A DNA stretch of 63,605 bases, counting the filler, from Hausera hauseri (taxonomy: Eukaryota), in the NCBI GenBank assembly GCA_046269625.1. It is 12 parts of 12 records of this genome, joined end to end, with 100 filler letters (N's around TTAATTAATTAA, not from the genome) between each part and the next. Parts side by side here need not be neighbours in the genome. Positions count along the whole stretch, not along the records: positions 42,337 to 48,097 come from JBJURY010192971.1; 11 more parts are not named here. One strand, written 5' to 3'. Shown one piece after another: positions 877 to 63,108 of this stretch. Under the pieces are notes generated by a model that was not told where the DNA came from, did no database searches, and saw nothing but the letters and a program-made list of their open reading frames with translations. Within the stretch, counting starts at the first letter, position 1. Each line of letters opens with the position of its first letter. The position numbers and the translations under genes were made by a program.

Positions 877-2385
877 TATTAATTCACGAAGTAGTTTTGA
901 GAAGCGAGATCCTGAAGTCTCTCGTTGGCTTCTTCAGTGCAGAAAGAAGATATTTAATGACGTATTCAGTTGCCGAATTTTTGCTTTCTTGAAATCGAAA
1001 AATGAGCTGAAACGTGAAACCCCCAACAATTGAACTTCAAATTGAAATTTTAAAAGTTGAAAAAGCAGGATTCAATTGTTTGAAAAATAGTTTTTAATAT
1101 TAAGAAAATCCGAAATAAGAATTGAAACTAGAAATTTCCAAGTTATGACTTACAACAAATTCTTTGATAATGTCCAGAATGAAGTAGAAACTGATATATT
1201 TAAAAAATGTATGAAGATTTACACAACTCAAATCATCAGTTGTATTTTTTTGTTTGCACATTTACAAAATTTAAACAAAAAAATTTTATAGTCAGCTGAA
1301 AACAGAGAAACAAAATTAGCCACAGTTGCTATATAAAATCAATGTCGCTTTTTGCTTTTCTTCGACGGTTTTTAAACAATACAATCCGACAACGAAAATC
1401 GCGGCATTTGACTTTCTAGAACATCAACATTACTTTCTTGAATTGTCTGCGTACAAGAACCAAGATCATCCGTGCTGAATTTGTTGTGGATTAACGAAAT
1501 ATGTTCATTCATAAACTGACGACAAGATGCTATTTTATGGCAAATTGCACATCTGTATATAATATAATCGATCATTTTGTCAGGATGAAATTCATCAAAA
1601 TGTTCTTCAATATTGTTCAAAAGGTGGCTGTGGTAAGTACAAAGAGGACAATGGAGAACGAGAACGTCACAAGTCATTAACTGTGGTAAAAGACCCATAG
1701 TAAGTGTTGTATTATAGTCTCATCGGTAGTCTGATCACCATTTGATTCTTTGATATTTGATTCGCCGAGATTTCGTATTCCATGTCGAATGTAATTCATT
1801 TGCAAATGATGAAATGACTGCTGAGTATTATTGCAAAAAATACATTTGAACTGTCTATCAGTTGATAATGTTTTTTCGAGAACGTCGGAATTTGTTCGAG
1901 AACATGGCCGGATCTCAGGTGAATGCTGAATTTGTGATAAATCTGAACTTCTAAAACTGTTTTTTGGCTTTTTGAATAAAGTTTTCCGGAAAAGTAAATA
2001 GTAACATACGCGGTATTACCGTAAATTTCTGTTGAGTCTGGCGATGTAGATTTGGCAATTGTTGAATTGGCACTTTCTTTAGCCGGTGCCGGTGCCGGTT
2101 TCGTTTGAGAGTTGCGTTTGGCCGATAGCATATCAGTAAAAGTTTTTGGTTTAGAATTGTATTTGACAGGGCTTACAGCAGCACCAGATACTACAACTGT
2201 TGGAACCACAAGGGGCAAAATCGTCGTCCAAACTATTATCTCTCTGTTGTTTAACGCCGCGATCATATTGTGCCGTTCCAAGGCGGAAGATCAGGACCCG
2301 TCTATGGGACCGACGCGGCGGCACCGGAGGCCCAGCTGTGCCCAACCAAATGGTTCAGAGGGCACCGGCCGCTTTGGGCACCACA
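877..2385 (-). mobile_element. Cargo-carrying insertion unit E1 (TGTGGTGCCC end; 5-bp TSD ATCCC)
   Basis: ATCCC at 872-876 and 2386-2390. Removing the unit restores pPolB EEIYKNPHVDIIYRS. The GC-rich end at 2276-2385 is homologous to 42711-42820 and 37850-37958. Confidence 0.8.
1372..2281 (-). pseudogene. Host C2H2 zinc-finger gene fragment (cargo of E1)
   Basis: ORF 1372-1698 has CPLCTY...HFDEFH and YRCAIC...HISLIH fingers. ORF 1796-2281 lies upstream on the same strand and is broken. Confidence 0.6.
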
Positions 2386-5491: not shown

Positions 5492-6565
5492 TCCCACTGC
5501 ATATTTCATCTGTCAATCGCTTAATTTCAGCTTCTAAATCTATTTTGTAATTCTAAGTATATAAATAAATTACGAGAACACATTTAAAAACCTTACCATT
5601 TGTCACACTATTTGTTGAAACAACACCATGGTATTTTCGCACATTTATACAAATCCACCAATATTAAAAACAAAATTTAAACAAAAAATTTTAGCGCCAA
5701 ATTCAAATTTTTAAATCCGACTTAAACCCATGCAGTTCACGTGCTTGTGTGTATCACTCTCATGATCGTGTGCTCCCATCTCCACCCTATTAACCGTTTA
5801 TGTGTGTATCATTTCTTCTACATCATGACTCATCCCAAACCACTTCCTTTCCTTCCTTCCCTGGGAGATTGGAGTAATGTGCTCACATCTATCTACTTGA
5901 AAAGGAATATTTTTCACCAATAGATTGCATTGTCAACGATTCAGGAGGTTGGTTGTTTGAATAATTAGAATTTTAGCTGGAATGCAGATCAGAATTTGGT
6001 TGTTTTAAGATAGACGTCAGAGCAGTCAATAACGACTGCTGTTCAACATTTCCGGTACTTTTAGTTTATGTAAAATTTCCGCTAATATTTTATAATAGTC
6101 AGGAGAATTATAATCCTTTTGTACAGGTAGCTCTTTCCTGATAAGGTCAATCATAATTCTGGAATAACATATAACAACGTTCCACATTTAGAATAGTGGA
6201 ATACGGCTATGTAAATCTCTATCATCATTACATTTTAATGATAACGACTCGGGCAATCGTTCTTGTGGTTTTTTGCGTCAATTGAACTAATCTCATTAAA
6301 TCCTGAACAACTTTGACCTTATGGTGAGCTAGCATCGGTAATTCTTTGACTTCTTTTCTGATTATCTGATAAATTGTGTCGGATGGCCGCAGCTTCTGCA
6401 CGTTGATTTCTTTTTATGATTATCTGTCCGATGGACACGACAACGGCAAAAATCCCCAAGAAAGGAAAAACTGGTCCGAAAACAGTGCAGTTGGTGCAAA
6501 GCTAATGCACCCGGCCGTGTCCGACCTAAATAGGCCAGGGGGCGCAACGCGCGGTGGGAACCACA
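5492..6565 (-). mobile_element. Cargo-carrying insertion unit E4 (partial; far end beyond contig start)
   Basis: The reverse complement of 6506-6565 is TGTGGTTCCCACCGCGCGTTGCGCCCCCTGGCCTATTTAGGTCGGACACGGCCGGG, which aligns with the E1-E3 ends. It abuts piggyBac coding sequence. The interior is decayed host-like coding DNA. Confidence 0.6.
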
Positions 6566-27430: not shown

Positions 27431-27829
27431 NNNNNNNNNNNNNNNNNNNNNNNNNNNNNNNNNNNNNNNNNNNNTTAATTAATTAANNNNNNNNNNNNNN
27501 NNNNNNNNNNNNNNNNNNNNNNNNNNNNNNTTAATTTCTTTAGCGAAACCATGAGTTATGTGGAGTAATGGGTGCTGGGTGGTGGCATGTTATGTTTTTG
27601 TAGTAAGTTAGATATACACCATCATTATCATTCTTTTTGATGACGTCAGCATCTTGATGACGTATATTCTTTAGTTATATAGTAAGGGGTTATGAGGCGG
27701 TGATGGTGACGTGTTAGATATCATCAGGTTCCGTATTCCTCATTCGTGGGCATGCTTATGGGACATGCAAGGGTCATATTTTCTGTTAAGGGCGGGTATC
27801 TTAAGGGTACTGGAGGTGGTTTAGGTCAC

Positions 27830-28500
27830 CAGCATGACAAAATCGCTGACATGACCATTGTCGACATGAAAGCTTATCAATGTGAAAAATCCAAACATGA
27901 AAACTTGAGACGTGGAACATTGCTGCTATGAAAACTTACTGACATTCCACGCCGACATACAAATTTGCAGAGATCCCAAAGTCGCCGACATGAAAATTGA
28001 CGACACGAAAGTTGTCGGCGACATGAACGTTGTCGATGTCAAAGTTGGCGACATGAAAACTTGTCAATGTGAAAAATCCTAACATGAAAACTTGAGACTT
28101 GGACCGTTGCTGCTATGAAAACTTACTAACATTCCAAAGTCGCTTCACAAAAGTTGTCGACTCGAACGTTATGGATATGAAGGTTGTCGACATGTAAAGT
28201 CGCCAACATGAAACGTCACCAACATGACAAAGCCATCGACGTGAAAGTTGACGATACAAAAGGTGTCGCCACGAACGTTGTCGCAATAAAGGTTGTCGAC
28301 ATGAAAGTTGCCAACATGAAAAGTCGCCGACATGAACGTTGTTGACAATAAAGTTGTCGACCTGAACATTGTCGACTTGAAGGATGTCAACGTGAAAACT
28401 TGCTGACGTGAGAAAATCCTAACATGAAAACTTTAGATGTGGAACGTCACCGATATGAAAACTTACTGACATGTCCAAAGTCACTGACATAAAAACTGCC
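27830..28500. repeat. Degenerate ~19-20-bp minisatellite (CATGAAAGTTGTCGA-like) with higher-order repeat
   Basis: Many CATGAAA/GTCGAC variants. The block TGTGAAAAATCC.AACATGAAAACTT recurs at ~27880, ~28068 and ~28408. Confidence 0.8.
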
Positions 28501-30545
28501 CACATATGATCCTATAAGCATGAAGAAGACGACCTAAACCACCACCAGCACCCTTAAGAAACCCTACCTTAACAGAAAATATGACCCTTCTTGTCCCGAC
28601 TTCCTCCCATAGATATGCTCAAGCATGAGGAAGACGACCTAAATATCGTCAGCACCCTTAAGAAACGCAATTTTAACATAAAATATGACCCTTCTATGAC
28701 CTAACGTGCTATTAAAGACATGCTCAAGCATGAGGAAGTCGACCTTAACATCGCCAGCACCCTTAAGAAACCCAACCTTAACACAAAATGTTACCCTTCC
28801 ATGATCCGACATGCCCCTAAATATAAAGAAGATGACCTAAACCACCACCAGCACCCCTAAGAAACCCAACCGTAACAGAAAATGTTACCCTTCCATAATC
28901 TGGCATACCCCTAACCATGAAGAAGATGACCTAAACCACCACCAGCACGCCTAAGAAACCCAACCTTAATAAAAAAAATGTCACCCTTCCATGATCCGAC
29001 ATGCCCTTAAACATGAAGAAGACGACCTAAACCACCTCCAGCACCTTTAAGAAACGCAACCTTAACAGAAAATATGCCCCTATAATGATCCGACGAGCTC
29101 CCATGAACATGAAGAACACGACCTAAACCACCCCCAGGACTCTTAGGATACCCGACCTTAAGAGAAAATATTCTCCTTCCATGGTCCGACTGTCTCCCAT
29201 GAACATAAAGAACACGACCTAATCCACCCCCAGGACTCTTAGGATACCTGACCTTAAGAGAAAGTATTCCCTTCCCATGATCCGACATGCCCTAAACATG
29301 AAGAAGATGACCTAAACCACCTCCAGTACCCTTAAGATACCCAACCTTAACNNNNNNNNNNNNNNNNNNNNNNNNNNNNNNNNNNNNNNNNNNNNNNNNN
29401 NNNNNNNNNNNNNNNNNNNNNNNNNNNNNNNNNNNNNNNNNNNNNNNNNNNCCATGATCCGACATGCCCTAAACATGAAGAAGATGACCTAAACCACCTC
29501 CAGTACCCTTAAGATACCCAACCTTAACATAAAATGTTATCCTTCCATGTCCCAACTTGCTCCATGAACACGAAGAACACGACCTAAACCACCTCCAGCA
29601 TGCCCAAGCTTGGGGAAGACAACCTAAAGTAGCTCTATCACCCTCAATAAACCTAACCTTAACAGAAAATATGACCCTTCCGTGTCCCGATTTGCTCCCA
29701 AAGAAATGCTCAGGTATGAAAAATACGATCGAAACCACCACCAGCACCTTTAAGAAACCCAAACATAAATGAAAATATGACCCTTCCATAACCCACATTG
29801 CTCCCATAGACTCAAGCATGAGGAAGACGACCTAAACCACACCCAAAACCTTTTAGAAACCCAACATTACCAGAAAATATGCCCTTCTATGACCCGACTT
29901 TCTCCCATGAATATGAAGAAGACGACCTAATCTACTTCCAGCACCATTTAGATACCCGCGCTTAACAGAAAATATGTCTCTTCCATGTCCCGACTTGCTC
30001 CCATGAACATGAAGAAGACAACCTAAACTACCTCCAGCACCCTTAGTATACCCAACATGCCCCTTCCATGACCCGACTTGCTCCCATAAACATGAAGAAG
30101 ATGACCTAAACCACGATCAGCACCCTTAAGATATCCAACATGCCCCTTACTTGATGCAACTTGCTTCCGTAGACATATCCAGCATGAGGAAGACTATCTA
30201 ATCACCGCCAGCACCCTTAAGAAACCGAACTCTAACCGAAAATTTGCCTTTTCCATGACCCATCTTGCTCCCCTACACACGCTCAAGCATGAGGAAGACG
30301 ACCTAAACAACTCCAGCACTCTTAAGACACCCAACCTTAACAGAAAATATGCACCTTCCATGATTCGACATGCCCCTAAACATGAAGAAGTCGGCCTTAA
30401 CCACCACCAGCACCCTTAAGATTCCCAACCTTAACATAAAATATGCCCCTTTAATGATCCGACATGTCCTTTAACATGAAGAAGATGACCTGAACCACCG
30501 CCAGTACCTTTAAGATACCCAACCTTAACAAAAAATATGACCCCT
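28500..30545. repeat. ~95-110-bp tandem satellite
   Basis: About 20 units of CATGAAGAAGACGACCTAAACCACC.CCAGCACCCTTAAGA.ACCCAACCTTAACAGAAAATATG.CCCTTCCATGA.CCGAC; an inverted partial unit at ~27745-27829. Confidence 0.9.
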
Positions 30546-33500
30546 TATAAATGTATATGGAGATGTCGGAAGATCATGGTCCCTAATAACTCTTACAATG
30601 CTACACTTATATGACATGGCACATGGTAATATCTAGACATAACACGTCATAATCCCCTCCTCATCACCCCTACTATATATGTCATCAACAATGATGATGG
30701 TGAGACTAACTACATAAAAACCGATAAAAATATTTACTTACTTAAATATATCTAATGGAGGTGACGGAAGGTCTTGGTCACTATCCTTATAAGATAACAC
30801 CCCCATCCCATCACCCCTACGACCGCTACACATCATCGCTTCTATCACTATTCCCGCTCCCTAATCCTAACTAACTTTGTCATAAACAAATGATGATGAG
30901 GGAAAAAAATGAAAACATGATGATGATGAAAAATTCTTACCTTACAGAAAAACAAGAAATCTAACTACATAAATTCCTTATATAACCTTAGCTCCAGAGC
31001 CCCTAATTAAAAAGAATGATGATGATGAAAAAAAAAAATTTAACAACATAAATATGCTTACTTTGCGGAAAAATAAGGAATCTAACTACATAAAAATGCT
31101 TACGTTGCAGAGAAAGATAGAGCCTTGTTATCTAAATCGGACCCCCTTTTTCCCTTGTAACCTTACTGCATGTGATCTTCAGATCCACATGAATACTTTG
31201 TTATATGGGATCGTATGATCCACATGCAAATTCTAAACATTATGTACATCCTATTACTACTCACCTTCGCTAGGACTCGGGGTTAGCGAAATTATTTATC
31301 TCTTCCGCTTACCTGTGTTTCGAACCATGGCCTTTCTTGTCAAGCTTTGAAGTGCAAAACATTAAATCCTTCTGCCAGACCATTCCTCGTCCATTTTATA
31401 TGGAGACGTGTTGCAAGCCCATTACAAAACTCCGATCTTTTCACACCCTGCCCAAAAGCCAAAAGACTTTCCAAATCGCCTGCTTTTTCAAACTCCTACA
31501 CTCCATGTTCAGAGTTTCTTTGATGTCTTGTGTCCAGCGGTGTCTCGGTGAAACTTATGCCAGAAACCGTACTTTCCTTTATAATTCCTTCTGGACCATC
31601 ATGTTCTTTTATGTGACGAAGTTTTACAGTTTTTGAGCCGTGATAATGTTTATGAGTCTGGTTCTCTGATGTTCACTTCTTGCAGCCTGACTTATTTTTG
31701 TTGTTGCACGATTGTCTGAAGACTTTTCTGTAACAATTTGTTTCTAAATGTTCAGTCATTTGTTAATGGTCTATAACTCACACCTGTAGGTCGCCACAGA
31801 ATAAATACGTGCTTCAGAAATTTTACTTTGGCCATATGGTCTTCAGATCAACGAACTTCTTTGGTCAAGCTAGTTCTGTCTTCCTTTCAACAGTCTTCGG
31901 TTTTTTTAGCTATGGAATTACATTATTCGAAATTAGTAACAATTTTAATGTCTAAATTATTGTTGTTAATTTGGGGTTGGCGGTTAATTTTATCAGCAGG
32001 CATTATTTTTGGTTTGTTTTTAATGTTCAGGGAAATGTTTTGTGCTTTCTTTTGTTTTGTAACAGACATGCTGAGTTTTTTTTTTTACTCCAGACCTTTA
32101 TGACTGGAAGAATGACTGTATCACATGTGTATATTAGTTCTGAAAATGAACTATAATCAGTTATGAAAGGNNNNNNNNNNNNNNNNNNNNNNNNNNNNNN
32201 NNNNNNNNNNNNNNTTAATTAATTAANNNNNNNNNNNNNNNNNNNNNNNNNNNNNNNNNNNNNNNNNNNNATCGATGGCACACATTAGCACTTTAACTTT
32301 ATCGATTTATTGATTGATGCAATATTGATTTACCCATTTACCAAAGATCAATTTATCGATTTTCTCGCTTGACCGATTATCGGTTACCATGGCAACGGCC
32401 ACCTTGTGCGGTATCTAAAGAACGGCCTCCATAGTGAAGTTTCGTAGTTACGATACCCTCGGGAGGCTGGTGTAGAAACCCCATCTCATCTACTAACTGT
32501 AGAGGAATTGATCATAACGTATAGCATAATAACACATTTAACGTATCTTTATGCATACATCCCATTTCTCTCAACCAAATAAGTCGTCATAAATAAGTTC
32601 AACTGAACCTAAAACTTAAATTTGGTGAGTTAAATTTGTATTAATAATTGGTTTATACATTTGGTATGATGTTAACTTTTTTTATTTTCAAAATCAATTC
32701 ACCACGACGTGATGGAATTGATCTATAAAGGTTTTCTAGCATTTCACTGTCACTTATATTCCATGTTGACGAAATGACAGATTTTTATTCTTATTTGGTT
32801 GCATACTGCCTTCAATTTTCGTTAACTTCACGTGATGCGGCAGACCAAGCAATTTCAATTATGTTAATATCTGGAGAGTACACCAACCATTTCAAAAACC
32901 TTAATATAATGGTCTTCAAATCAGTTTTGATTCTCTTTAGCTGTACTGCTGGAATACATTGTTGTCTCTAATAAATAGTAACACTTTGCAAAGCATGATA
33001 TTTACACAATTCTTTGTATCCCCAGTTCCCTTGGTAATGAATACATCCAATTTTGCGTCGCACAATATGGTACTCCATACCATAATTTAGTTTCCCAAAA
33101 AAATCAAGTTTTGTTAAATATGATCAATTTGTAAGAAAAATTTGACTATTCAGTTGAAATGTTCTAACTATATTGTTAAGGGAAAAACGTTTTCCATTCT
33201 ATTGAATGGTTAATCACATACTGAGATAACAATAGGTCATATTCTACAAAATGCAATGAGTTATGGTATGTAGTGTTATATCAATTCCCACGTAACTCTC
33301 GAATGGGGAGCAGTATTATTATTATTTTTACGACAACGACGCACTCCACTCAGTTTGAATATTTTTAGTAATTTAGCAGATTAGTCTACGTATGACTTTA
33401 TGAACCGACTGTCCCAAATGGAACTGCTTGTACGACCACGAGCTAATAAAATCATTTGTTTACTTATCCTAATACAAAAGTTGTTTGACAAATAAAATAT

Positions 33501-33954
33501 TAAAATTCAAATGTCATTGGCTGTCTACTTCACTGAGTTTTGTTTATGATTTTTAAAAATCTATTATTTTGAGCTGTTGAGATGATAAACAATGCTTTTT
33601 TTTGTTAGCTTTTAATGATGCTCTGTGTTTGCATCCACAGTTTAAAGCCATAATGACTTTAACTTCATAAACTTTATTGTCATTCACAATTGTACAGGGC
33701 ACCATGCACAATTAAAAAAAAATAGGTTTTCCAGAAATATTTCATGGTAGGAGGTGTGAAGAGTATGAACGATCCTGATCAGACAAATTTTCTTAGGTAC
33801 GTATGTATTTAACGGCTTTCGTTAAATTAAAATATCATTTACACTACAACTGCAGATCAGTCTTTCTTTCTTTTTTAAAATTAATTTTATTAAGCCACGC
33901 AGAGTCGATCAAATAGACACTGATTTTCGGTTCGGAAAATCAAACTAGGCACTG

Positions 33955-35450
33955 TGTCGTAGAGTAAAGGCCGCAAAGTCAGAAAAAGCCATAGAAGAAG
34001 AACCGCAACACTAGAAAGAGACATCAACACGTCAACTACAAAGGACACCGACGCACGGAAGGCGGAAATGGGAGTGTAAAAATTACAAAGAAACGCCGAT
34101 GATCGCCCACACACGATACAGAGGCGGAAAGCGCCAACACAAAAGCAACGTTAATTGCGTAGGCGGAGGACGGAGATAAACAAAAAGTGTTGGAAACATA
34201 GCAACGAGGAGCAGTATTCAGGAGACTTTGAAGTGAGCAGATGTGCTCAGTGTTTGTGATAGAGCCAGTATTCTCAGGACTTCTGAGGAAGTAAATGTGT
34301 TCTACATGGCGGCAAGGAAAGTTTTCCTTGGCAAGCTCCTGCAGTGTATGTGAGCCGATTTTATGGTCCAGTTGGACTTGGCTACAGGCTCCCTAACGTT
34401 TGGAGTATGAAATCATCGTGACTATGGAGAGTCACCAACGTTTTCGTGCAGCAGAAGAAACAGAGGTATCTCTCACCCCAGACCAAGTGTGTATTTTGTT
34501 AATCAACGTTCGTGATAGAGAAGCTTGCAGAATGGTAACAGCATCTCATCTACAGTTTGTTTACAGTGGCTAATCAGCCATTGCAACACAGGGTAGCAAA
34601 ATTGTGGAGAACCCAGCGCTGTGAAAGGAGCAGTTTGAAATTGTGTTGGAATTCTAGAAAACTGTGAGTACAGTTAAGCGTTTACATGTCTAGAAATATT
34701 GACTATAGTGCGCACATGTGAACAATGAACAGAAAGCTGCATATAATGAGATCCGAAAGGATGTGCCACCACATCGTGGTGTTGAACACTGAAATTGTAA
34801 AAACAGTGATAATTAGCATTAATTAGTGGTGCGCACTTTTAGCTGTCTTGAATGTTTAAATGTGATTGGCTCATGTACATTGTTTGTGAAACAGTCTATA
34901 TGTTTTCCCCTTCACACAGAGATGAGACTCGCCAAATATCGGCTTGACCCTTCTCTCCCCATTGTGGCGTTTCGTTAGACGGAAGTCCCAATAGTGTGAC
35001 TTGATTCAGTCAGGTCGCCAATGTAGTCGTGTCCGAGAGCAATTATTTATGTATGTTTATTTAGAGATTTTACTTCAGTATTGGTATTGAGAACCAAGAG
35101 AGGCCTATACCATTGAGATTATTATGTTGCACATGATTTCATTGATGATTGTCAATAGTTACGTTAACAAACTTGATTTTATTTAAAGGACTAGCATTCT
35201 CCAGTCTATAGTATTCGTGCCAAAGTTTCGTTGCACGCTTTAACTATTGAAATATATCGTTGGTATTGGTTGTGTTGCTTACGGTTGTAGACTGTGTTGT
35301 TACTACGGGTGCTGTGGTGAATACACGAACACTGGGGCATTTCTATTACCATCGTCATATTGAGTAAGAAATGCAAACACAATACTATCACCGTGCCAAT
35401 GATTTTATTATCCCAATTTGTATAGCGTCGGTAGCACAAAAACTACGACA
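33955..35450 (+). repeat. Gypsy 5' LTR
   Basis: Terminal inverted 8-mer TGTCGTAG...CTACGACA, followed by PBS-like TGGTGCCGGTGA at 35462 and then gag. Confidence 0.7.
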
Positions 35451-35752
35451 GTAATGTTTATTGGTGCCGGTGAGATTACGGTCACCGACAGCACACTGCT
35501 ATCATAGATCAGAGATGTAATTATATTGAGATATTGTGCACAGCGTACATATATACTATAAATACAGTGTGAAAAGACAGTGTTTCAAACGCCGCACAAT
35601 TGGTATATTTATTGAGTGCTAGCTAAAATAGTTCAGTGACAAATACAAAAGAAATTTCTTGAGCAAGAAATTGAACACTGCCTGGTTGAAAACCAACGAA
35701 AATTGATTTTAATCAGTTCGTAATTGACTTAGAAGAAAGTTTATCAGACAAC

Positions 35753-36731
35753 ATGGCGGAAGGTACTGAATGGATGGTCACGTTACCTCAAGCACAACTA
35801 GACACCATCGTGGCCGCAAATGCAGCCATGCGCACGGAGTGTGAGGAAATTCGCAAAATGATAGCAGATCTTCAAGTCGGAAGTCAAACTCAGAGCAAAG
35901 AAGTGAAAACACGTCCAGCTACACAAGATGATCCTGTAAGGAAGGCCATAGATAAATTCGAGACTATGGTGACTAAAGTGAATCTTAACAGCAAACACCA
36001 AAATGTGAGAACGGTTGTTCAACCCTTCAGTGGTAAAGACACGAGACAGTTCAAGACCTGGATTTCTCAGATCGAGAAATATAGTTACCTGGTGTAGGTG
36101 ACAGAGGATGAGAAGAAGGAGCTTGTTATATGACCACAGATGGTCTCGCGAACGACTTTGTTAAACGCAAGCTTAGCACACATCCCAATGACACGTGGGA
36201 TGCATTTAAGAAAACGCTCGAAAACAGCTATGCAGAGGTGAGCGACATGCACTATGCCATCGCTGCCCTCATGAAGATACGTCAGGCAAAAAGCCAAGCA
36301 GTACAGTTGTACGGAGACGAACTTTGGAAAATGGCGGAAAGTTGCTTACCCTGGTCAAGATGTACTTTCTGAAGAAATCGGTAAACTGCTGATACCCATC
36401 TTTATTGATGGCTTGAGAAACACAAGAATTAAAATTAAACTGATGAAAGAAGAGCACAAGACGATCGAATCAGCAATTCAGACAGCAGTTGATGAGGAGA
36501 ATTTTAGAAAGCGAATTAACATACGAATGGGAAGAGACAAGTTCGAAGACCAAGGTGAAGAACAAATGAATGTTGACCATTATAGACACAAATGTCGAGG
36601 AAGACATTCAGATGATGAACGTTATCATGAAAGATGACATGAACACAGACGCATGGTTCATGAAGTAGAAAAACACATAAAATGATAAGGGTGTGGAAAA
36701 GATGGGCATATTGCGAAAGAATGCCACAGTA
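35753..36731 (+). pseudogene. Ty3/Gypsy gag, disrupted
   Basis: QPFSGKDTRQFKTWISQIEKY, TWDAFKKTL, KIRQ..SQAVQLY, FIDGL and a degenerate CxxCxxxGHxxxxC knuckle near 36690-36725. Confidence 0.75.
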
Positions 36732-37849: not shown

Positions 37850-39503
37850 TGTGGTGTCCACGGCGGCCGGTGCCCTTTGGCTCATTTGGTTGGGCACGGC
37901 CGGGCGTCCGTTGTCGCCGCGTCGGATCCATTGTCGGGCCCGATTTTCGGCCTCAAAAAACTTCACAATTTCTACATCATAAAAATGACTCCAATTACAC
38001 CATCGTTGAAGAACAAAGAAAATAAAAGATTAGAAAAATTGATGACGATGAAACTGAAATTATGTATAAAGAACCAATATTTTTCTCCGAAGTCGAAGTT
38101 TTAGATTTATCACAAAGCAAATCTCCATGTCGGTCAGCGTATGCTATCGGTACAATCACTGATCGTAGTAATGCCAACGAATCGTTGAATTTTCTAGCCA
38201 TGGTCAGTCTTCATATCGAATAGATGATCTTAATAATAGTGATATATGGAATAATATAGGAAAAATACGCCTATATATTGAAAGGTTTTGGAGCGCACAG
38301 TTTAGCCAATATTCTACCAACGATTCCGGAATTATCGTTACAGACAACAGTTCACAAGACATTAAAACCATCGTGTAAATGCCTGAATATTGAACAATTG
38401 CAGAAAATATTGTCTGTTGTTGATCACTGGGTTATACAATCCAATAACTCACATTTGTCGTCCCACACAAGGCAGAAGAAAACATTTCTGAGTGAAATTG
38501 TATTAGAAGAAATTGTAACAAGTAAGCTGATTAAACCATTAGAATCGTCCGTACTAGCAAAAACGTCGTTGCGAAAAAAATCAAAGAAGTCGAAATACGA
38601 AAAATATTGGGAAAAATTGGTGTTGAAACATCTGAACCGTCGACTGTGTCTCACCGATAAGCCTCATTTGCACTGGAGCTTAATGCAGCCGGTTTTGTTC
38701 AAAGGTGAAGCAGTTCGTTTCTGTGCTGTAACAAATAAACACGAGCTTGAAAGTCTGTGAAATATAATTAAAATTATCATCCGATACGCTTGACTCTCGC
38801 CTCCGACAGTTGATACTAAAACGATGTCTCAGATGCTATTTATGAGCCTATGTACAAATACGATTCTTATGCACTATCTGACTTTTTATCTTTATTTTCT
38901 ATTATTCGTTGTTATTGTTACTGATATTACTATTAGTAGTATTAGTATTATTGATAGTACTACTGACTTATCATCATTATTATTGGCATCATTGGCTACT
39001 TCGGCTTTGCGGATTTTATGCACGTTTTATATACAAAAAACGCAGATTTATCGCGGCTGATATCTCTGAACATCTGGTTTTCTGTTTTCATTAGCATAAT
39101 GTCACGTTCTTTTTGTACAATTCGTTTTGCGATGTGCCGGATTCGCCGGCCTTGTTTTGTGTGTCGTTCCTTATGACATTGTAAAAGTTTAAAAAAATTT
39201 GTTTTCTTGAATAATTGACAATTGTTGTTGAAGTTCGATTTTAAATTTCTGGCCATTTTGAAGTCTTCAATTACTGCTCATATTCAGTTCGTTTACACCA
39301 TTTTTGAAGTTTTGTTTAAGAACAACTATTATTGCGATTAATACAAAAGGAAATTTAACGGTGGAATTATTCAAAATTATTTTCTAAAAGTGTAGAAGCA
39401 AAAAATACAGAAATGATCGATGAGGAGTTGGCGAAATTTTATCAGAAATTTTGGCTGCAGTCGTCTCCGCAGGATTTAATCATCACGAATTTTGCAATTA
39501 ATA
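37850..39503 (+). mobile_element. Cargo-carrying insertion unit E3 (no matching TSD)
   Basis: Starts TGTGGTGTCCACGGCGGCCGGTGCCC (homologous end to ~37958), then host-like ORFs (38278-38760 + and 38996-39256 -). Ends ...AATTAATA like E1, where the Sola2-like frame begins. Confidence 0.6.
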
Positions 39504-40905
39504 CCTGTGTCAAAATTTAGCATAGTTTGGGTAGAAATATCTTGTGGATTGCTTGCAGGCACCATATGCAAGAAGTCCTTCTTTCAGATGTATTCAAGTC
39601 TGCATATGGTCCCTCGAGAGATCCGAACATACCATTCTTCATTAAGTTCAAGGAAAGATGGCATTCGATAAACCATGATGACTGGTGTTCCTCACTTTAT
39701 GATCCTCTTTTGTCAGAAAGATTCTCAGTGACAGGGGACCCTATGCAGCTGAAATAAAAATTAGTGACATACCTCAAGTCAGCAATTGAATCACCTCACC
39801 ATACACGTGACGATTACAAAGAGCTGCTGGTTTTTTCCTATGCATTTTTTGGGTGCACAGCCTGAAGGAGGATTGCATATCAGATTGCCCGGCTCATTCC
39901 ATCAAGCAAGATGGATGGTAAAGGCAATCTGTGCTCTTAAGATCTTCCTTTTCAGAAATCAGATGCAGCTGTCTCAAAGTGAACTGAACGTTCTAAAAGA
40001 CCTCCGCCTCTTCGATAGCTTCCTATATTGTTTTACTGGAATGAGACACCAATTTTTTCTCATGCTCCAAAAACTATCCAGACTTCATAAAGGAGCTGTA
40101 ATTGGGCCTACATGATGCAGCACTGACTTCTGCGGCTTTCAATGCCTTTAAAAGACATCTCTGGCATGTATCAGAACAGCTGGTAGCATTGGCATTCTTT
40201 GACAGTCGCATCTGTCCAGAGGAAAAGCTACAGATGGTAAAGAACTTGGACCTTCCAGAGCATAAAGATGGCAAGAAACTAAAACGGCTTGACAAAAATG
40301 TTTTTACAGCAACATGCATTTCTGACTATGTTATGAAGCGAAAGAAGTTTCTTTGACAGAATTCTTTCCGATGGACAACAAAGATCATAAACCTTTCTCC
40401 CAACACCACCAGCAACATGGGAGCATGATGCAACTTATCAGGAGTTTAAGGACGCTGTACAGGACATTAAGGTCGTTAATGATACTGCAGACCAGATAAT
40501 TGCCCTTGATACTAAATTTAACAGTTCTCTAACTAAGGAAGAGTTACACAAACAGTATCTACTGAAGGTGGTTGCAAAGCACTTCAAAGGTATGCCTTCA
40601 ATTTTAACCAGTTTTCATTTTAATTTATGGACACTGAACCAGTCGCTAGTTAATATCTACTGTATGATATCTCTTATTCTGACAACAGTAATGTTTCTGT
40701 TTCTAATACGTCTAATTGTGCAGTGATAAATAACTTTGAAAGGAGTTCATTTCAGTTTTCCTATGTTAAAGATAAAGTACTTAGGAGGGACCCCTAAACT
40801 TTAATGTAGACTGCTGAAATTTCTTACGTAAGTAATTCATAGTGAATGACACTAAACTGCGATGTGCCTCAAACGAAATGGAATAATATATTATTTTGAA
40901 CCACC
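39504..40905 (+). mobile_element. DDE transposon remnant, probably Sola2-like
   Basis: CVKI*HSLGRNILWIACRHH, DDYKEL, PGSFHQARWM, RHLWHVSEQLVALAFFD and VVNDTA. The terminus is ...TTTTGAACCACCC; family assignment is tentative. Confidence 0.6.
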
Positions 40906-40908
40906 CTA

Positions 40909-41891
40909 GTGAGGACAGACAGTAATATTTTTTTGCCAAAAACTCGCGAATCAGAAGAGATGTGTGGCACGGTGCATTTTCGTGATAAAGGAGGAAGCCA
41001 TTAGCCCATATTTCTGGTTTCTTCCGCCCTATATCGTCTAGCAAACGTTGTAGCAAGCCCTCGTAACATTCAGAGTTCACAAACGTTCCCCTTAAAACGA
41101 TTTCCGATCGCATTATGCTCTCACTATCAAAAACCGATGAGCATGACCTTAGCGTTCGACTTTGACTGACATGTCTTCTTAGGGCGAGGAGAACTACTAG
41201 TTTTCCATTGGGAACACAGCATTTTCGTTTCAGGATCATATGCATACATCCAACTTTCATCTACAGTTATAATTTGGCCACCAAGTCGGGATCTGCATAA
41301 AGACGACCTTTAAGTTCCATGCAAACTGCTCGTCACTCAAAAGTCTGGTAAAAAATTTCGCACTGACTCGTCTAATTTGCAAATCATTGGTTAAAATGCT
41401 TTGCACGAACCCGTATGAGACGTTTAGTTCCTCGGCAAGCTCTTGAATCGACAATCGCCTGTTTGATTGAATCATTTTTGCCACTTTTGCGCGTTTTCGT
41501 CTGTTTTTTAGGTCAAAGGACATCCACACCGTTGCTCTTTTTCAACAGATTCATTCCCGCTTTCAAGTCGCTCATACCACTTGTAAGCAGTCTTCAGAGT
41601 CACCACATTATCACCATATACTGATTTCAACATTTCATGAGCTTCTTTGGCACTTTTTAGCAACTTAAAACAAAATTCAATGTTAACACGTTGTTCGAAA
41701 TCCATGATGCGCAACAAATACAGTAAATATGACCTATAGCTCCTGAAGCTGATGTACAAGTCGCAACTTGTTTAAATTTGGTACTGATTATCTCAGTGAA
41801 TCGGACTACTGAACGTATTATTTCAAACGGATTTAGCATCAGCAGTTCCTGGAATAAAAATTCATTCACCGTATTTTTTGACCACACCTTG
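40909..41891 (-). mobile_element. mariner transposon, 3'-truncated
   Basis: EQRVNIEFCFKL, NRRLSIQELAEEL, RRVSAKF and LYHENAPCHTS. The TIR CAAGGTGTGGTCAAAAAATACGGTGAAT is flanked by TA at 41892-41893. Confidence 0.85.
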
Positions 41892-42336: not shown

Positions 42337-42710
42337 CCAGATGAGCTGCATGATGTTTTGGACGATTTACCGGTCGCACCGTTTAACCAATATCCGCCAG
42401 ATTCAAAAGTGAAGAAACTGCTGATGACTCATGAACCGAAGCTGATTTACGTGGTCCATTGGTGTCTGCTTCAGTTCTACATGCAGCTCGGTGTACGCAT
42501 TACACAGTTGCATCGTGCAATCCGATTTGCTCAGGCTTTCATATTCAAGGCGTACATATACGGAGATTCAGAGAAACCAGCCGCAGCTTGTACAAAGTTC
42601 GAAAAGGACTATTACAGGCTGAAAAACAATTCTCTGTACGGAAAAACAGTGGAGAATCTGAGAAAGCGGCTCAATGTACGCCTATTCAATAGCGAAAAGC
42701 GATTGGTCAC
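42337..42710 (+). pseudogene. pPolB copy 2, part upstream of E2
   Basis: Highly similar to 3965-4320; motif B YYRLKNNSLYGKTVENLRKR. Confidence 0.85.
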
Positions 42711-44710
42711 TGTGGTGCCCACAGCGGCCGGCGTCCTCTAGCCCATTTGTTTGGACACGGCCGGGCGTCCGCCGCCGCCGCGTCGGGTCCATAGGCGGGC
42801 CCCGATCTTCCGCCTTGAAAGACGTTACGTCAAGTAGCACCTCTAGTATCACAAATGACTGCACTGTTGATCCGTCAAACGATGCACAAGATGCAGTCAT
42901 CTGTTCAGAGAAAAATACTAAAGTTATTTGTAGTTTCTACCAAAACATAAACTGAGTTTAAAGCAACCGAAGCAGTTATTGTCATGTCGAGTGCCTGAAA
43001 TTCTGAAAGCTGAACTGTTGAATTGTCTGTCTGTATTCTGTCAGCAACCTGAAGATGTAAGATCCATTTGGAATGCTCTTCAGTCCTGTAAAGTCATCGC
43101 CAATTCATCTGAATATTCGAATTCAAGTATTCAAATAGAACTTGAAGTTGTGGAACCGCGGTCTGAAGAGTACTCAATTACCAGGGAATTTATTAAGTTC
43201 CTTTTGTGCGTTACTCCACATCTTGTTCGTGACATAATACACATGGATTTGCATGGTCAACCCGGTGACCAGTTCAATACGTCAATGGTCTCTTTACCAT
43301 CAATGCATCCGTCTGTCGACAGTCTGACGAACATCATTCAAATGGTGACGGAGTCTGTATTTCTAAAACATTCCCTGAGAACCTATAGAAACATAGAGGA
43401 AAAATTCGAGATTGCTGAATTATTTTTGAAATTGTGTTACAAGTGTTGATTTGTTTCTTGGTGTCAATACGATCCTGGATTCTATATAATAACACAACTG
43501 CTCACCGAGTCGCCGTTTTTTTAAACTGTTGTCAATATTATCGAAGAAGGATTTTGCTAAGTCACAGAAGCCTTAAACAACGTTACTTATGGACCGAGGA
43601 CAATTTTCAATGAGGCGTTAAAGTCACTGGAAAGTTCAATTCAATATTCCATGGATCTGCTGTGTATGTTGTAGAAAAACGAAACACACTTGTTACCTTT
43701 GATGAGATCTGTCAACTAGGAACATAAATGATTGATGTCGATCAAACATTTTATTGAACCGTAACCGTCCATTAGTGATGGTCGGATGTAGTCATTTAGT
43801 GGTGACATCGAATTCTAGTGAAGGATTTCTGACAAATCTCATCAAATGTGAAACTTGTTAATGAATGTGACGAATTATGTATGAAGGCATTGGAATTATT
43901 TCATTACTGTACCAAACTAATTCATTGCCATAAGTATATCATGTTACCATTTGTACGTAGAAATTTGACGATTACCGATTATGATTTAATGCAGATACTT
44001 GTCAATTGCCTTGATAAATATGGCGATATTGATGACGACATATTTGATGATGAAATGGAACAATTTCGTGACAACTTTTCCATGAAATTATTCTTTACCG
44101 ATGATCATTTACTGATAACACCCCGTTCTATTATTTTACAAATACTCGTTACTTGTCTACAATATCCGACACCAAATATCGGTCAACATTTGATGGGTTT
44201 TTGCTGTGAAAATGTCAATTCAGTAAAACATAGAGCACTACAAGAAGCCAGTGTCGGCGATTTCCCAAAGACCTGTCTCCATTATTAAATCTGGTCCAAC
44301 GATTAACGAAAGATATTTTATCCAATCTTTGTATGAATAAGAATTGCGATACGAATTGTGATCCACATGCTTTGTCATCATTTTATGCCAATAATATCCA
44401 TTTATGTTTGTCATATCAAATACTGTATTTGTTATGCAGTAAAAGTTGTACATCCGTAGTCGGGACATTAACTAATGTATTTGTTTAAATAATGTAAAGA
44501 AATTTATGCTTTAGTTTGTGAAATTTGATTTTAATTAAAACGTGCATATAATCCGACACTGAATTAATTTTATTGATACTGCTTTAAAGCATTTGCCATT
44601 CAATTTCAGAATTTTATTTTGATTCCGTTTTTTTTAAATTCTGGATTTGTCGCTGGACGAGTTCATTGCCATATATTCGGCTACCCTTTGTGATTATATT
44701 TAGATCCTCA
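42711..44710 (+). mobile_element. Cargo-carrying insertion unit E2 (TG...CA, 2000 bp, 5-bp TSD GTCAC)
   Basis: GTCAC at 42706-42710 and 44711-44715; termini TGTGG...CCTCA. Excision restores pPolB NSEKRLVTYTSRTQFRRSMHIADG. Confidence 0.88.
42870..44460 (+). pseudogene. NUP205: Nucleoporin Nup205 internal fragment (cargo of E2)
   Basis: LKAELLNCLSVF, IQIELEVVEPRSEEYSITREF and ILQILVTCLQYPTPNIG..LMGF...GDFPKTCLH match remembered Nup205 segments; stops and frameshifts; no obvious introns. Confidence 0.75.
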
Positions 44711-45405
44711 GTCACGTACACGAGTAGGACTCAGTTTCGGCGGTCAATGCACATTGCCGATGGATTGGTTACGGTTCTGTTAAACAGAGAAGTCATTCTG
44801 GACCGGCCAAGTTACATCGGACAAGTGGTATTGGACCTGACCAAGTTGCGGATATATGAGCTACAGCATCGCGATTTGGCACGTTACCGGTAAATGTTTG
44901 ACGGCTGTGACATTAGTATAATTGCCCGTGACACATAGAGTTTCTTACTGCGGCTGAAAAAAGTCAATCGCGAACAGCTACTGCAGCAAATGCAGTCAGA
45001 TATGTTACTGGACACGTCCAATTACCCACCGGATATCCGTTGTACAGCAGCGCAATTACCAACAAAATTGGCTGCTTCAAGGATGAAAGTAAAGGCTGGG
45101 TTCAGTATTTGGAATGGATAATTCTACAGCCAAAATGTTATAGACTTTTAACTGACGGTGGACCGAAAATTCGCACCAAAGGAGTTCAGTTGGCCTAGAC
45201 GGAAATAAACCACGGTGATTATTGCCGTATTTATGAGGAAGAAGGACAATCAAAGCCTCTTGTATCACAAACGATTATCCGATCGATTGAGCACCAGCTG
45301 TATACGGTGACCAATACAAAATTTGCTTTATCATGAAACGATGATAAGCGTAAGCGGGTGGGACGAAATAAGAGTTTGGTGTACAGACATTGGCGTTTGG
45401 AATAA
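44711..45405 (+). pseudogene. pPolB copy 2, C-terminal part
   Basis: LDRPSYIGQVVLDLTK, degenerate motif C (DT*S), IGCFKDE and DDKR; similar to 4330-4770. Confidence 0.8.
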
Positions 45406-56672: not shown

Positions 56673-58338
56673 ATGTCTCTAGCTGAAGCAATGATGAATG
56701 ACTTTGACATGGCTCAAATGGAGTCAATGAACGTAAATGAAAACGTTGGTGAGTTGGAGGAAATTGACGAAAATGTCGATTTAGAAATGACTCAATATTA
56801 TCTGGATAAACCTGCGTCCGAGATATCCAAATTAAAGGACAGCGAAAAGGTAAATAGTGTCTGATGTTAGAATTTACGCAAATTCTATTTCAAATTAGTA
56901 TTATATTATTCAAATTTAGTTGAAGGAAATGCTGCACAGTATTGAAAATTTCCGTTCCGTAAACATAGAAAAAAGATTTGGTTCGTTTGAAACAGATCCC
57001 GAATATGAACTTATCGTCAAATCGAATGATCTGATTACAGAAATTGACAATGAACTAAATGCGTTTCACAAGTACACAAAGGATATTTATTCGGCAAGAT
57101 ACCCAGAATTAGCAACTGTCGTAGCAGATCCAGTGCAATACATTCGATGTGTTAAGGTGTGTTAATTTCGCTGAATTTTTGTTGTCTTCATGATTTATTA
57201 ACAACAATGATATTATCAATTTATTTTATCCAGATATTCGGAAACGACATCAGCAGCATTACGCGACATCAAGACGCTCTTAAAAAGTTCCTCGATCCAG
57301 CAATTATCATGAGCATATCCGTATCTGCCGCCAAATCCAATGGTACAGAACTGACAGACAGTCGATTGGCGAACGCGATGTTGGCATGCGACAACGCAAT
57401 TGAGTTACAGGATGTAAAGGATTACATTTTGATCTTTGTCGAATCTCGAATGGCCTTCTTCGCACCGAATTTATGTACACTGCTGGGTCCGTCTGTGGCA
57501 GCAAAACTTATGGGTAATGCTGGGTACGTTCTCAATTGGACTTGTGTTAAATGCACGGTTTGTAGGACGAGCCGGTGGATTGAAGTCACTGGCAAATACT
57601 CCCGGATGTAATTTGTTGAATTTTGGCGCCACGAGACGCGGTGATTTTAGCGTAGTGAATCCCGTGACGAGGAATCGCGGTGGATATATCTGCAATTCCG
57701 ATGACGTGAAGAAATTGCGACCGGACATTCGTCTGAAAGCCGCCAAGCTATACGCAAATAAGGCCGTCATTGCGGCTCGCGTTGATTTATCCAACAGATT
57801 CCGGAACGGAGAGGAGGGAGAAAAGTTGCGAGAAGCCGTACAGAAAGCCATCGACAAGCTTCTAGAACCGCCGCCGGTGAAAGCTATCAAACCACTTCCG
57901 GCACCGATTGATTTACCATCGAAGCGACGCGGTGGTCGACGCTATCGAAAGCGCAAGGAGCGACTGGGAATGACGGAAGTGCGAAAGAGTGCAAATCGAA
58001 TCGAATTTGGTGGTATTGAAGACTCGTACGATAATGAGATGTCGGTGAATGCCGGTCGATTGGGTCGAACGAATAAAATCAGGGCGCCGATTGCTGACGC
58101 AAAAACGAAGGCCCGAGTCAGTAAGACTCTGAATCAGCGACTACAGAAACAACAACAAGCACAGACGGCACTTTGGGGAGGTACGACGTCGATCAAGAGA
58201 AACATTTCGGGTGTGTCAACGACTGTCGCGTTTACGCCGATGAAGGGCGTAGAGATTTCTAATCCAACTCCAATAGACAACAAGCCCGAAGTTGGATCGA
58301 AATATTTTTCAAATTCTGCTGCATGGCAGAAGAAATAG
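56673..58338 (+). CDS. PRPF31: U4/U6 snRNP protein Prp31 (exons 56673-56849, 56920-57156, 57234-57513, 57566-58338)
   Basis: MSLAE, DPEYELIV..N.LI.EIDNE, YS.RYPEL, FVESRM.FFAPNL, AARVD and KPLPAP...KRRGGRRYRK; in-frame canonical introns. Confidence 0.93.
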
Positions 58339-59466: not shown

Positions 59467-59890
59467 TCAGCTGAATCCACACAAACCTTTCTTAACTCCT
59501 TCAATTCTCCCTCCATTCTACATACACGGCAACCTGCTACTCCTAAACCTGCATCAGTTTAAAAGACTACGCAAAACGACATACCGACTATTTCTCAAGC
59601 TGCTGACACGTCATATCAAAATTTAACTTTCTCCCAACGAACTCAGCAAGCAATCAAACAACACAGTAAGAAACATAAGATGGTTACCTTCAGCAAATAC
59701 AGCAGAGAACAGAATGTTGACAAAATTCAACGCCTTGTCCATACAAAAATGCAATAGCTCACATTACGTATTCTTTCCACGTTTCAATCACATCAAAAAA
59801 TTTGCTTTTTTTAATAGTTCTTCTACACCTCACTACTTTGTCTTTCAATTTCTTTTCTTTAATACAGTGTCATTTCCGTAACGCGTGTAG
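59467..59890 (+). mobile_element. Gypsy pol 3' tail, copy 1
   Basis: Direct repeat of 60990-61371. Confidence 0.7.
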
Positions 59891-60693
59891 TGTGGTGCCG
59901 CGGACTCGGGGCCGCTACAGTACCAGTTGTTCCATCAGATCTCTCGGTTGTGGAATATCTGCACAAAATATTGCCGAAAGGATAACGTTGTTAAAACTCC
60001 AAATGGAATTCGTAAAAAGTAAAACGGAAAACAGTGGCGCCGATTGTGTAGTAAAGGGAATTGTACAAAAGAATCACTACTCGATCTACTAATTAGTTTT
60101 CCTGACAAATTCTGTATCTGAAAAGAAATTTCCCGTGTTAGAAGATGACACATATAATTGCAAAGTACGTAATGCGTCAATGTGCCGCAACTCGTCCCAC
60201 AAATATTAATTAAGTCGGTATTAGCTCAAATTAATCAAGTGCTTGACATTTTGATATTGACTCAATCACTATTACCGAAAAATTCGAAGGTGAAATTTAG
60301 AGATTATTTGGTAAATCTACAAAAGAAACACGAGAGTAGACAACCAAAACAGTAATTGAAAAGAGAATTAACATGTCGCCGTTGATATGGATATTTTTCT
60401 AAATTCTAGCAATGAGGAAGGTTGTGAGTTGAGTTATAATGAAATTTCGCCCAATGATAAAAAACATCCCAATATTAAAGCAGTTAATAGCAGCGAAAAG
60501 AAATTGCCTGAAATGAGAAAAAACGTCGTTCCAGTAAACTATCGTTGGTTTTGATCAGTGATTGTGCACATTTTATGCCAGATTAAGAATTTATCTTTTT
60601 GTAATATATTGTGACTGAAATAAGAAAATTGATTAAATAAAAAATTTGAAAAGAATGATAATAAATAAATGTTATTAGTTGTTATAGCTAACA
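59891..60693 (+). repeat. Putative 3' LTR L1 with host-like interior
   Basis: Starts TGTGGTGCCG after the pol tail; AATAAA near 60660-60668, then ...CTAACA abutting integrase sequence. Confidence 0.5.
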
Positions 60694-61371
60694 ACACCAA
60701 CTGACGAAACAATTAGGTCAGCACAAAATCACTTTGTTCAGCTAAGCCAGGATTTGTTCTGCAAAATAGTACATGGCGATTAGACATATTTACCCGATTC
60801 ATTATTCAAAGCAAAATTTATTTGGTTAAAAAATCCGTCACCCTCTGGATTCCAACCAAACTATTTAGGACCATTTAAAGTCCTCAACCTAAGTTCACAC
60901 ATAGTTACCATACTTAGAAAAGATAAAGAGCAAAACATACACATAAACAACGTAAAACCAGCATTCTTCGTCGATGATACACGGGAATCTTCAGCTGAAT
61001 CCACACAAACCTTTCTTAACTCCTTCAATTCTCCCTCCATTCTACATACACGGCAACCTGCTACTCCAAAACCTGCATCAGTTTAAAAGACTACGCAAAA
61101 CGACATACCGACTAGTTCTCAAGCTGCCGACACGTCAAATCAAAATTTGACTTCCTCCCAACCAATTCAGCAAGCAGTCAAACAACACAGTAAGAAACAC
61201 ATGACGGTTACCTTCAGCAAATACAAAGATGCAATAGCTCATAGAAAGTATTCTCTACACGTTGTTGCTTCTATCACATCAAAAATGTGCTTTTTTCAAT
61301 AGTTCGCCTACACCTGTCGGCTTTGTCTTCTTGCTTTCGCCCTGACAGTGTCATTTTATAACGGGGGGTGG
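60694..61371 (+). mobile_element. Gypsy integrase C-terminus (GPY/F), 3' tail and PPT
   Basis: FQPNYLGPFKVL...IHINNVKPAF; PPT-like CGGGGGGTGG immediately before TGTGG at 61372. Confidence 0.75.
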
Positions 61372-62580
61372 TGTGGTGCCGCGGGCTTGGGCGCCTGCAC
61401 AGTCCAATTGCAATTTTTCTTTTTAACGAAATGCTCAAACAATTTTTCAAATCTTTCAAGGAATTTGTGGACACCTTTGCCATTACATTCCAAATTTGTC
61501 AAATCCAACAAGTCGTTTTCTCGCATCACACCACTAATACAACAGCTGTCGGTCATCCAGCAACTAATGTAAATTATACTGTACGAGACGCTTTATGATA
61601 TTGCCAAAGAAGCTTCCATGAATTCTTCTATTTACGGACCGAAATATTCGTTAACATTCTTAAATAGTTCTAGCTGCAATCAGTATAAGAAATGGTATTT
61701 CTGCAATACGAATAATTCCGGAGAAAATCTACTTCAGTCGGGAATTGAAAAGAGCAACCGTGATTTAGTAAACATTGAATCGAAACATTAAAGGTTGTTA
61801 GTGCATTGAATATTCGTACTTGTTGTGCAATCTATATATAACATTGCGTATTATTGTGTGTGAATAACGCATAACTAATTACTAGGTAGTCAAATGACTA
61901 TTCAGTCCAAACATTATGCAAAATCAATCGTTTAAAAACGATTATTTTTTTGTAAGCTGACACTGAATTTTTATGCACGTATACTTTCAACATTATTATA
62001 CGAAATAAAGAAATTTTGTCAATTTTTTTGTAATAACTACGTGTTAAATTTGTATTCGCTTTTCATTTTTCTGCCTCAATTATGGAACTGAAAACGCTGA
62101 TGTTAGTATTCTATATTGACAAATGAAATTTCAATGAAATATTTTTCATTAAGTGCGTTTTCGTAGATTAACCGAATATTTGGTATGATCAGCCGAAAGA
62201 CATTTTGTTTTGTATATTTCAATATAGTGATTGTAGAAAGTTTGTCACATTGACAAATCATCAATTTGTGTATTATAACAGTATAGCAGTAAAAATTAAG
62301 TGGACAATGTTGGGCTGCTGTCTGTCAGTAATAAAATTGGACAAATCATGAAATAGTGCATTGAAAGTAGATTGAATAATGTGAATTCTGGATAACTGAT
62401 TTATTAGTTAATTAGAAAATTTTGATTTTTGAAAATAAACAGTTATTTGGCTTTATTACTTCATTATCTGTGTTGGAATTTATCGTATACAAAGCTTTAA
62501 CAATGGTGTCAGATATGCAAATAAAAGACAATGAAAACAAGTTGATAAAGCACTCAATTGTCCCACAGCCCTACAAATGA

Positions 62581-63108
62581 ATGATATTGGAAGCAATAAG
62601 ATTATTTGTACGTAGCTCAATGGATCTGTTCCAATCGTTGTCGAATATGACTGATCCGAAAACAATGTATGAAGCAGGAAAACAACTTAGTAGACTATAT
62701 TTTGATTGTGCAAACCATCAACGAAAACTTGCCGAAATATTACTGGAGCTTCAATTTCCAGAATATTCAATTAACAACATGAAAAATCCCAACAATATGG
62801 ATGTTTTTAAAAACGACGTTATATGGTTTTCTTCGTTCTATTTCTGCAACATTTGCTGGAATTATTCTGATGCATCGTTTGAATTTGCAACCGCATTAGC
62901 ACTCTGTGGTTTACCGAATTTCTTAAATCTAAACATGGACTTACAAAAGACGGCCATACAAACAAACAACACTGGTCAATCTAGATTAAGAAAATGTCCA
63001 CAAAAGTTACCAATTTATTTCATTAATGCTAAAAATTGGCAAATATACATGCAATTCACAACCGTTAAAAATACTTCTGTAGCCAGTATTTGTTCAAAAA
63101 AAATTTAA
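62581..63108 (+). pseudogene. Host gene fragment, helical/ARM-repeat-like
   Basis: 175-aa ORF with ICWNYSDASFEFATALA; frame broken on both sides; identity uncertain. Confidence 0.35.

Follow-up and report, generated by a model that had tools for sequence, protein, structure and literature searches.

Template switching by LTR elements is an established route of gene capture in animals (PMC5131818), and the capture sites reported in a review lie between the LTRs or near pol and env. The LTR-mediated retrocopies described in PMC5131818 are truncated host pieces without poly(A) that are joined to LTR-element sequence and can be recopied as non-autonomous units, features that they share with E2, the Nup205-carrying unit of Hausera hauseri analyzed here. 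Unlike E2, in which the cargo lies directly behind a 110-bp end, these retrocopies are described as replacing internal ORFs between two LTRs (PMC5131818); E2 has a single head, lacks an internal region and a second LTR, and ends in sequence that is not shared. Gene-carrying TRIMs and maize Bs1 resemble E2 as non-autonomous units (1.2-1.5 kb) with exon cargo and 5-bp duplications, but in the account given in PMC4717578 they keep both LTRs and hold the cargo internally. Pack-TIRs and Pack-MULEs likewise carry a host gene fragment in a mobile unit and are defined there by two TIRs, of which E2 has none (PMC8277862, PMC6431247). Ginger1 and Ginger2/TDD elements have the same TGTNR start as E2, with 5-bp duplications in TDD, but are described with TIRs of 40-270 bp, absent from E2 (PMC2836005).

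Among Ty3/Gypsy elements, the CsRN1 clade, common in flatworms, comes close to the units studied here in its TGTGGYG start, permitted ATA end, and GPY/F-type integrase tail (PMC3601003, PMC2582038). The start is listed as the 5' integrase motif of the clade's LTRs (PMC3601003, Table 3), and CsRn1-like elements are reported with LTR ends AAA or ATA and 4-bp duplications (PMC2582038), the duplication length also given for the tapeworm Saci2 elements (PMC12471100). The clade as described differs from E2 in these 4-bp duplications, in LTRs that do not exceed a few hundred bp, and in carrying no host cargo. Among the titles and abstract openings that we searched, which covered few subscription journals, none described a solo LTR occupied by host gene sequence after a constant head. 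We consider E2 likely to be a variant of LTR-mediated gene capture with a new layout, and not an unrelated system; a preliminary description of this DNA had set it apart from two-TIR Pack-MULEs and from retrocopies held between two LTRs.

The window, that is, the whole stretch of 63,605 nucleotides that was analyzed, consists of 12 short contigs with spacers between them. It was rich in mobile DNA, including 2 pPolB genes, Gypsy and non-LTR reverse transcriptases, and Tc1 and other transposases. A Gypsy protease-RT-RNase H remnant (19300-23017, minus strand) and a Gypsy region that is gag-like and follows a long leader (33950-36731) had no head linked in their contigs, and we also observed an open 583-aa C-terminal half of a non-LTR RT with a zinc-binding and nuclease-like end (25679-27430, minus strand) and a diverged repeat array with units of about 90-105 bp in both orientations (27700-30550). 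The Prp31 gene in the window had 45-52% identity to that of other animals, and the introns of the host were few and short; this very divergent gene (56673-58338) had three introns, each about 42-76 bp in length, and its last exon was long. In a quick tree of 10 rows, the Nup205 piece of E2 grouped with flatworm Nup205 outside the fluke-tapeworm clade (SH 96), and a quick Prp31 tree placed flukes nearest by path, without support. On the basis of these two trees, the host is probably a flatworm.

Table 1. Coordinates of features in the window, counted along the whole stretch
Feature	Position	Strand	Remarks
E1, sister unit	877..2385	-	1509 bp, TG...TA, inside second pPolB gene
E1 duplication ATCCC	872-876 and 2386-2390		5 bp, exact
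E4 head, diverged	6511..6565	-	adjoins piggyBac-like transposase (presumed family)
E3 head	37850..37961	+	interrupts Tc1-type transposase
pPolB gene, left part, interrupted by E2	42337..42710	+	cut by contig edge
E2 left target-site duplication GTCAC	42706..42710	+	5 bp, exact
E2, whole inserted unit	42711..44710	+	TGTGG...CCTCA, 2000 bp
GC-rich shared head of E2	42711..42820	+	likely left (U3) end of Gypsy LTR
Lead between head and Nup205	42821..42975	+	155 bp; AG immediately before Nup205 match
Decayed Nup205 fragment, intron-free	42976..44455	+	1,480 bp
AT-rich tail and right end	44456..44710	+	255 bp; possible further Nup205 remnant at 44566-44610
E2 right target-site duplication GTCAC	44711..44715	+	5 bp, exact
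pPolB gene, right part, interrupted by E2	44711..45399	+	further breaks present
Second copy of spacer/LTR-like-start joint	starts at 59891
Integrase-C-terminal-like tail, 3' spacer, purine tract, LTR-like start at 61372	60784..61410	+

We identified the insertion of E2 as real and well bounded (Table 1), and its boundaries are trusted because they were established along two independent lines, from a pPolB relative that is unbroken, P0195, and from empty-site contigs of a public run, X1. The flanks of E2 matched consecutive residues of P0195, and in 6 X1 contigs position 42705 was followed directly by 44711, 2005 bases being absent and 5 letters assignable to both sides of the joint; these contigs had a summed depth of 59.5, which by the tool's own warning is a rough guide and not a copy number. 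X1 shares 43% of the window's words and may be the window's own source sample, so that the empty site is confirmed in paralogues and not in an independent population. A CA followed by recurrence of a 5-mer within 300-2400 bp was found at 18% of 4,294 random positions, and this pattern alone is therefore weak, whereas, once a boundary is known in advance, the probability of a 5-mer match there is about 1 in 1000. The preliminary description of a 2000-bp unit between GTCAC repeats within a pPolB gene was thus borne out, its duplication being persuasive at the prefixed boundary and not as a pattern by itself.

As also stated there, no transposase, RT, or TIR was found in E2, nor was an internal direct repeat, and in E2 and E1 the reversed tail scored below shuffles against the head. 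An X1 contig without differences bridged the joint of head, lead, and Nup205 (42786-43016); the two outer junctions of E2 were not among the 8 X1 pieces listed, with 12,286 further pieces. The interrupted pPolB copy was broken elsewhere too, so it is dead regardless of E2. The nearest pPolB relative was P0195 (69% identity), and both pPolB copies carry head-bearing insertions; a third short pPolB fragment lies at a contig edge (48203-48373, minus strand). An endonuclease VII domain was present in many pPolB relatives, and the family (window 1-4734 and 42337-45399) had very high X1 depth, 23,000-99,000 per bin.

The cargo was colinear with residues 395-888 of P0124, the nearest Nup205 relative, without an intron, and had accumulated 6 stops, 3 frameshifts, and one 15-codon deletion. 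Firm homology covered 1,480 bp of the ~1.6 kb first attributed to Nup205. X1 contigs were about 97% alike over the cargo, with 22 differences from E2 listed in the Nup205 block, 17 of which were classified (4 silent and 13 changing). Where P0124 allowed a comparison, X1 agreed with it at 7/11 differences and E2 at 0/11, and the X1 contig at depth 33.7 also keeps 45 bases absent from E2, as inferred from record lengths. This contig is likely the intact host Nup205 gene or a younger copy. Because X1 fits the relative where E2 does not, and because the piece groups with flatworms, the E2 cargo is most likely derived from the host's own Nup205.

The evidence on an RNA step pointed both ways. The likely donor contig appears intron-free over about 400 bp, and introns are few and short in the host, so the missing introns of E2, which the preliminary description had proposed to compare with the donor locus, do not prove passage through RNA: the comparison found no intron in either, over 1.48 kb in the cargo and about 400 bp in the likely donor. 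The ORF of a relative, P0125, stops at an apparent intron start where E2 reads through, and a stop at this probable intron site would speak for an RNA step. A candidate GT-AG intron of 57 bp in the body of E3 (38203-38259; 26% GC, stop-containing, between two in-frame ORFs) may count against it.

The lead and tail around the cargo were also considered as Nup205 sequence, which a 27-sequence profile did not support, with 166 and 140 of 200 shuffles scoring as well; against one frog sequence 3 of 150 shuffles reached the score of the tail, a result that did not recur with P0124. The window holds 5 copies of TTTGTTTAAA, and 3 of these lie, oriented as the head is, within the 3' parts of E1 (1279), E4 (5685), and E2 (44480); noticed post hoc, it is possibly a promoter or poly(A) relic. 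A 25-bp AT motif was common to E1, E4, and, weakly, E2.

The head of E2 (72% GC over its first 100 bases) was found at 4 places in the window, 42711(+), 2385(-), 37850(+), and 6565(-), as against 0 in 100 shuffles. The heads were 81-83% alike, and likeness to E2 ran for 110 bp in E1 and 113 bp in E3, in keeping with the preliminary view that only the first ~110 bp are shared, but for only about 55 bp in E4. Summed X1 depth, as before a rough guide, was about 14,000 in the head and 6-123 per bin in the E2 body, and X1 contigs identical to the window had a depth of 4-14. Depth within the body was 105-115 near its two ends (9-10 contigs) as against 33-41 in the middle, which hints at sister copies, and that of the last 46 bases is inseparable from the pPolB signal. 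The contrast of two to three orders between head and body implies that most heads do not lead into the body of E2 and that its right end, unlike the head, is no repeated terminus.

The start TGTGGTG fitted the CsRN1-clade motif at 7/7 positions in 5 of 6 starts (E1, E2, E3, and both LTR-like starts of contig 12), and the E4 start fitted at 6/7. The clade's 3' motif, MSYYAMA, was matched at 5/7 by the last 7 bases of E2 and at 4/7 by those of E1, with a full match in E3 at head positions 102-108, the motif being common (0.24% per position); identifying the head as a complete mini-LTR by this motif was dropped for that reason. A structured RNA, tRNA-derived SINE, or ribozyme was likewise set aside (no Rfam or tRNA match; fold z +0.6 to -1.8 in 7 folds), and a Transib-like CAC start was ruled out, since the other three heads begin at TG with different flanks. 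Searches of metagenome contigs with head patterns returned 0 matches in one case and 1 in another; this match and 1 in a viral contig fitted over the first 23-24 bases only and were dropped as chance. No relatives of pPolB or of the integrase-like tail were found among viral contigs, and no element combining an E2-type head, primer site, and gag-pol was seen in the window, nor an internal region linked to a head that could carry the CsRN1 clade's tRNA-Trp primer site, CHCC Gag, and Pol.

E1 is the second unit bounded at both ends, its duplication falling exactly at the joint between P0195 residues 355 and 356. Both duplications begin with G, and an alternative 4-bp reading with AG ends needs this coincidence twice. 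E1 ends in ATA and has only the head in common with E2; their bodies and right ends are unrelated, the last 30, 60, 100, and 300 bases being no more alike than shuffles. The body of E1 contained C2H2-zinc-finger-like coding remnants in the head's sense, with a best Pfam E of 0.003, below the cut-off. The bodies of E3 and E4 had no family match and those of contig 12 no firm match, and neither the far ends of E3 and E4 nor the other halves of their transposase genes were found in the window contigs. We take the transposase next to E4 to be piggyBac-like from its motifs. Likeness between E2 and E3 beyond the head was discarded, as 208 of 2000 shuffles were as good. After the E3 body, positions 39400-41800 hold a decayed transposase and a mariner-like element, possibly nested in E3.

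The preliminary description had counted four cargos behind the same end in four contigs. Four heads are indeed present, but both ends are available for E1 and E2 only, and while the Nup205 cargo is firm, the zinc-finger remnants of E1 are sub-threshold and E3 and E4 match no family. A systematic shuttling of host DNA, as suggested there, is made plausible by the depth contrast between head and body, the examples at present being two units bounded at both ends and a single cargo with a firm name. Insertion by a retroviral-type integrase of a unit with a host-gene body was supported, E1 being a second bounded example. Of the two forms offered for E2, a solo-LTR-like and a one-ended mobile unit, the former gains from the CsRN1 motif and from the nine-base motif behind an integrase-like tail; membership of the Ginger type fails on TIRs.

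In contig 12, we identified two LTR-like starts whose first nine bases are the same as those of the head. This nine-mer, TGTGGTGCC, occurred 4 times in the window against 0.16 expected, with 2 sites at unit starts and 2 behind the 3' spacer of an integrase-like tail, 1 of them with a clear purine tract. The tail was compared with an integrase C-terminal cluster (score 0.92, 192 shared features). The two contig-12 copies diverge after about 39 bases, and beyond the nine bases their likeness to the head was weak (p 0.05-0.37), so that these starts represent a related lineage at best. The stretch 59467-63605 is stacked, with a 3' spacer, the start at 59891, ~800 bp of coding-like sequence, then the tail, another spacer, the purine tract, and the second start; the coding-like sequence after the 61372 start differs from that after the 59891 start.

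We lean, by a modest degree, towards E2 being a solo LTR of a Gypsy family in which host sequence has overwritten the LTR beyond the head. Integrase would bind the head as the left end of the LTR, and the promoter may lie there as well. Reverse transcriptase would move between two templates, element RNA and a spliced or unspliced host transcript, placing host sequence directly behind the head; LTR regeneration would copy this sequence into both LTRs, Gypsy integrase acting in trans would insert the copy, and LTR-LTR recombination would leave a solo unit that later decayed. Since E1 and E2 have no common 3' sequence, the overwriting probably extends to the right end, where the integrase may need little beyond the terminal CA or TA. 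This capture route and the origin of the right end are what we infer. The TG starts and the exact 5-bp duplications at independently fixed joints of E1 and E2 favor the solo-LTR reading, and the TGTGGTG start and the nine-mer behind an integrase-like tail and purine tract would point to Gypsy. The lack of a common R-U5 or right end in E1 and E2 would count against a solo LTR, R and U5 being described as usually the best-kept parts of an LTR (PMC3601003). The 4-bp duplication expected of the CsRN1 clade was not seen, E1 and E2 having 5 bp, and for this reason E2 is not assigned to that clade. Duplications of 5 bp are made by other Gypsy clades. A one-ended Gypsy lineage, with an integrase site and promoter in the 110-bp head, everything else including the right terminus drawn anew from differing host genes, and hundreds of gene pieces moved as units with exact target duplications, is a tentative extension that we rather doubt.

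Read-through transduction is a known process, and the head may instead be a complete short LTR (about 105-113 bp). The cargo would then be host DNA that lay downstream of an earlier insertion and was acquired by read-through; cryptic priming within host RNA would have created a new right end, and integrase would have inserted head and flank as one unit. Such a history would explain the unrelated right ends, the possible E3 intron, and the AG before the Nup205 match; three heads diverge at nearly one point (105-113), E3 has the full 3' motif at 102-108, and CsRn1-like LTRs as short as 146 bp are reported (PMC2582038). That motif is common, however, and neither E1 nor E2 matches it fully there; divergence comes at 55 in E4 and at 39 in the two contig-12 copies, and no tie between the lead upstream of Nup205 and the donor locus was established. 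We consider the short LTR unlikely, though a close rival. Taken together, the overwritten solo LTR and the short LTR make a Gypsy origin quite likely.

We consider improbable an ordinary origin in which a non-autonomous LTR or TIR element acquired its interior from the Nup205 locus through gap repair or deletion, the original right end having since decayed or belonging to an unsampled subfamily. Capture of this kind is described as common in animal Pack-TIRs (PMC8277862), the assembly favors unique bodies, so that short contigs may overstate body variety, and the 25-bp AT motif recurs in E1, E4, and weakly E2. This origin predicts, however, a right end as repeated as the head, whereas depth was about 115 against 14,000; right ends were no more alike than shuffles where heads were 81-83% alike, and there is no TIR. 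The bacterial ISEcp1 mobilizes adjacent DNA by one-ended transposition, and a Ginger-type integrase-like transposase could similarly bind the head and select a cryptic CA in the host DNA next to it. Such movement would fit right ends that are unrelated and introns that are retained, as well as the shared end pattern, the 5-bp duplications of TDD-4/5, and the GPY/F tail also present in Ginger1 (PMC2836005). Against this stand the 4-bp duplications given for animal Gingers in the same source, the absence from the window of an inverted head copy at an element end and of a Ginger transposase, and the direct orientation of the contig-12 start after the integrase-like tail and purine tract, like a 3' LTR; we regard such transposition as very improbable. 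An assembly chimera of repeats would be conceivable given the short contigs, the repeat-rich genome, and outer junctions that are not among the 8 X1 pieces listed, but exact duplications at two independent gene joints, the X1 contig without differences across 42786-43016, and a cargo with decay of its own make it scarcely credible.

An integrated unit without a conserved right end is at present based on two elements. If the cargo lies inside the terminal repeat, as in the overwritten solo LTR, it would be copied to both ends in each cycle and persist as a solo unit. Such units would scatter gene pieces that repeat finders miss and gene finders call pseudogenes. If the right end is host-derived, Gypsy integrase and reverse transcriptase would manage with much less fixed sequence than they are assumed to require, and these units would provide a countable natural test of host RNA entry into LTRs.
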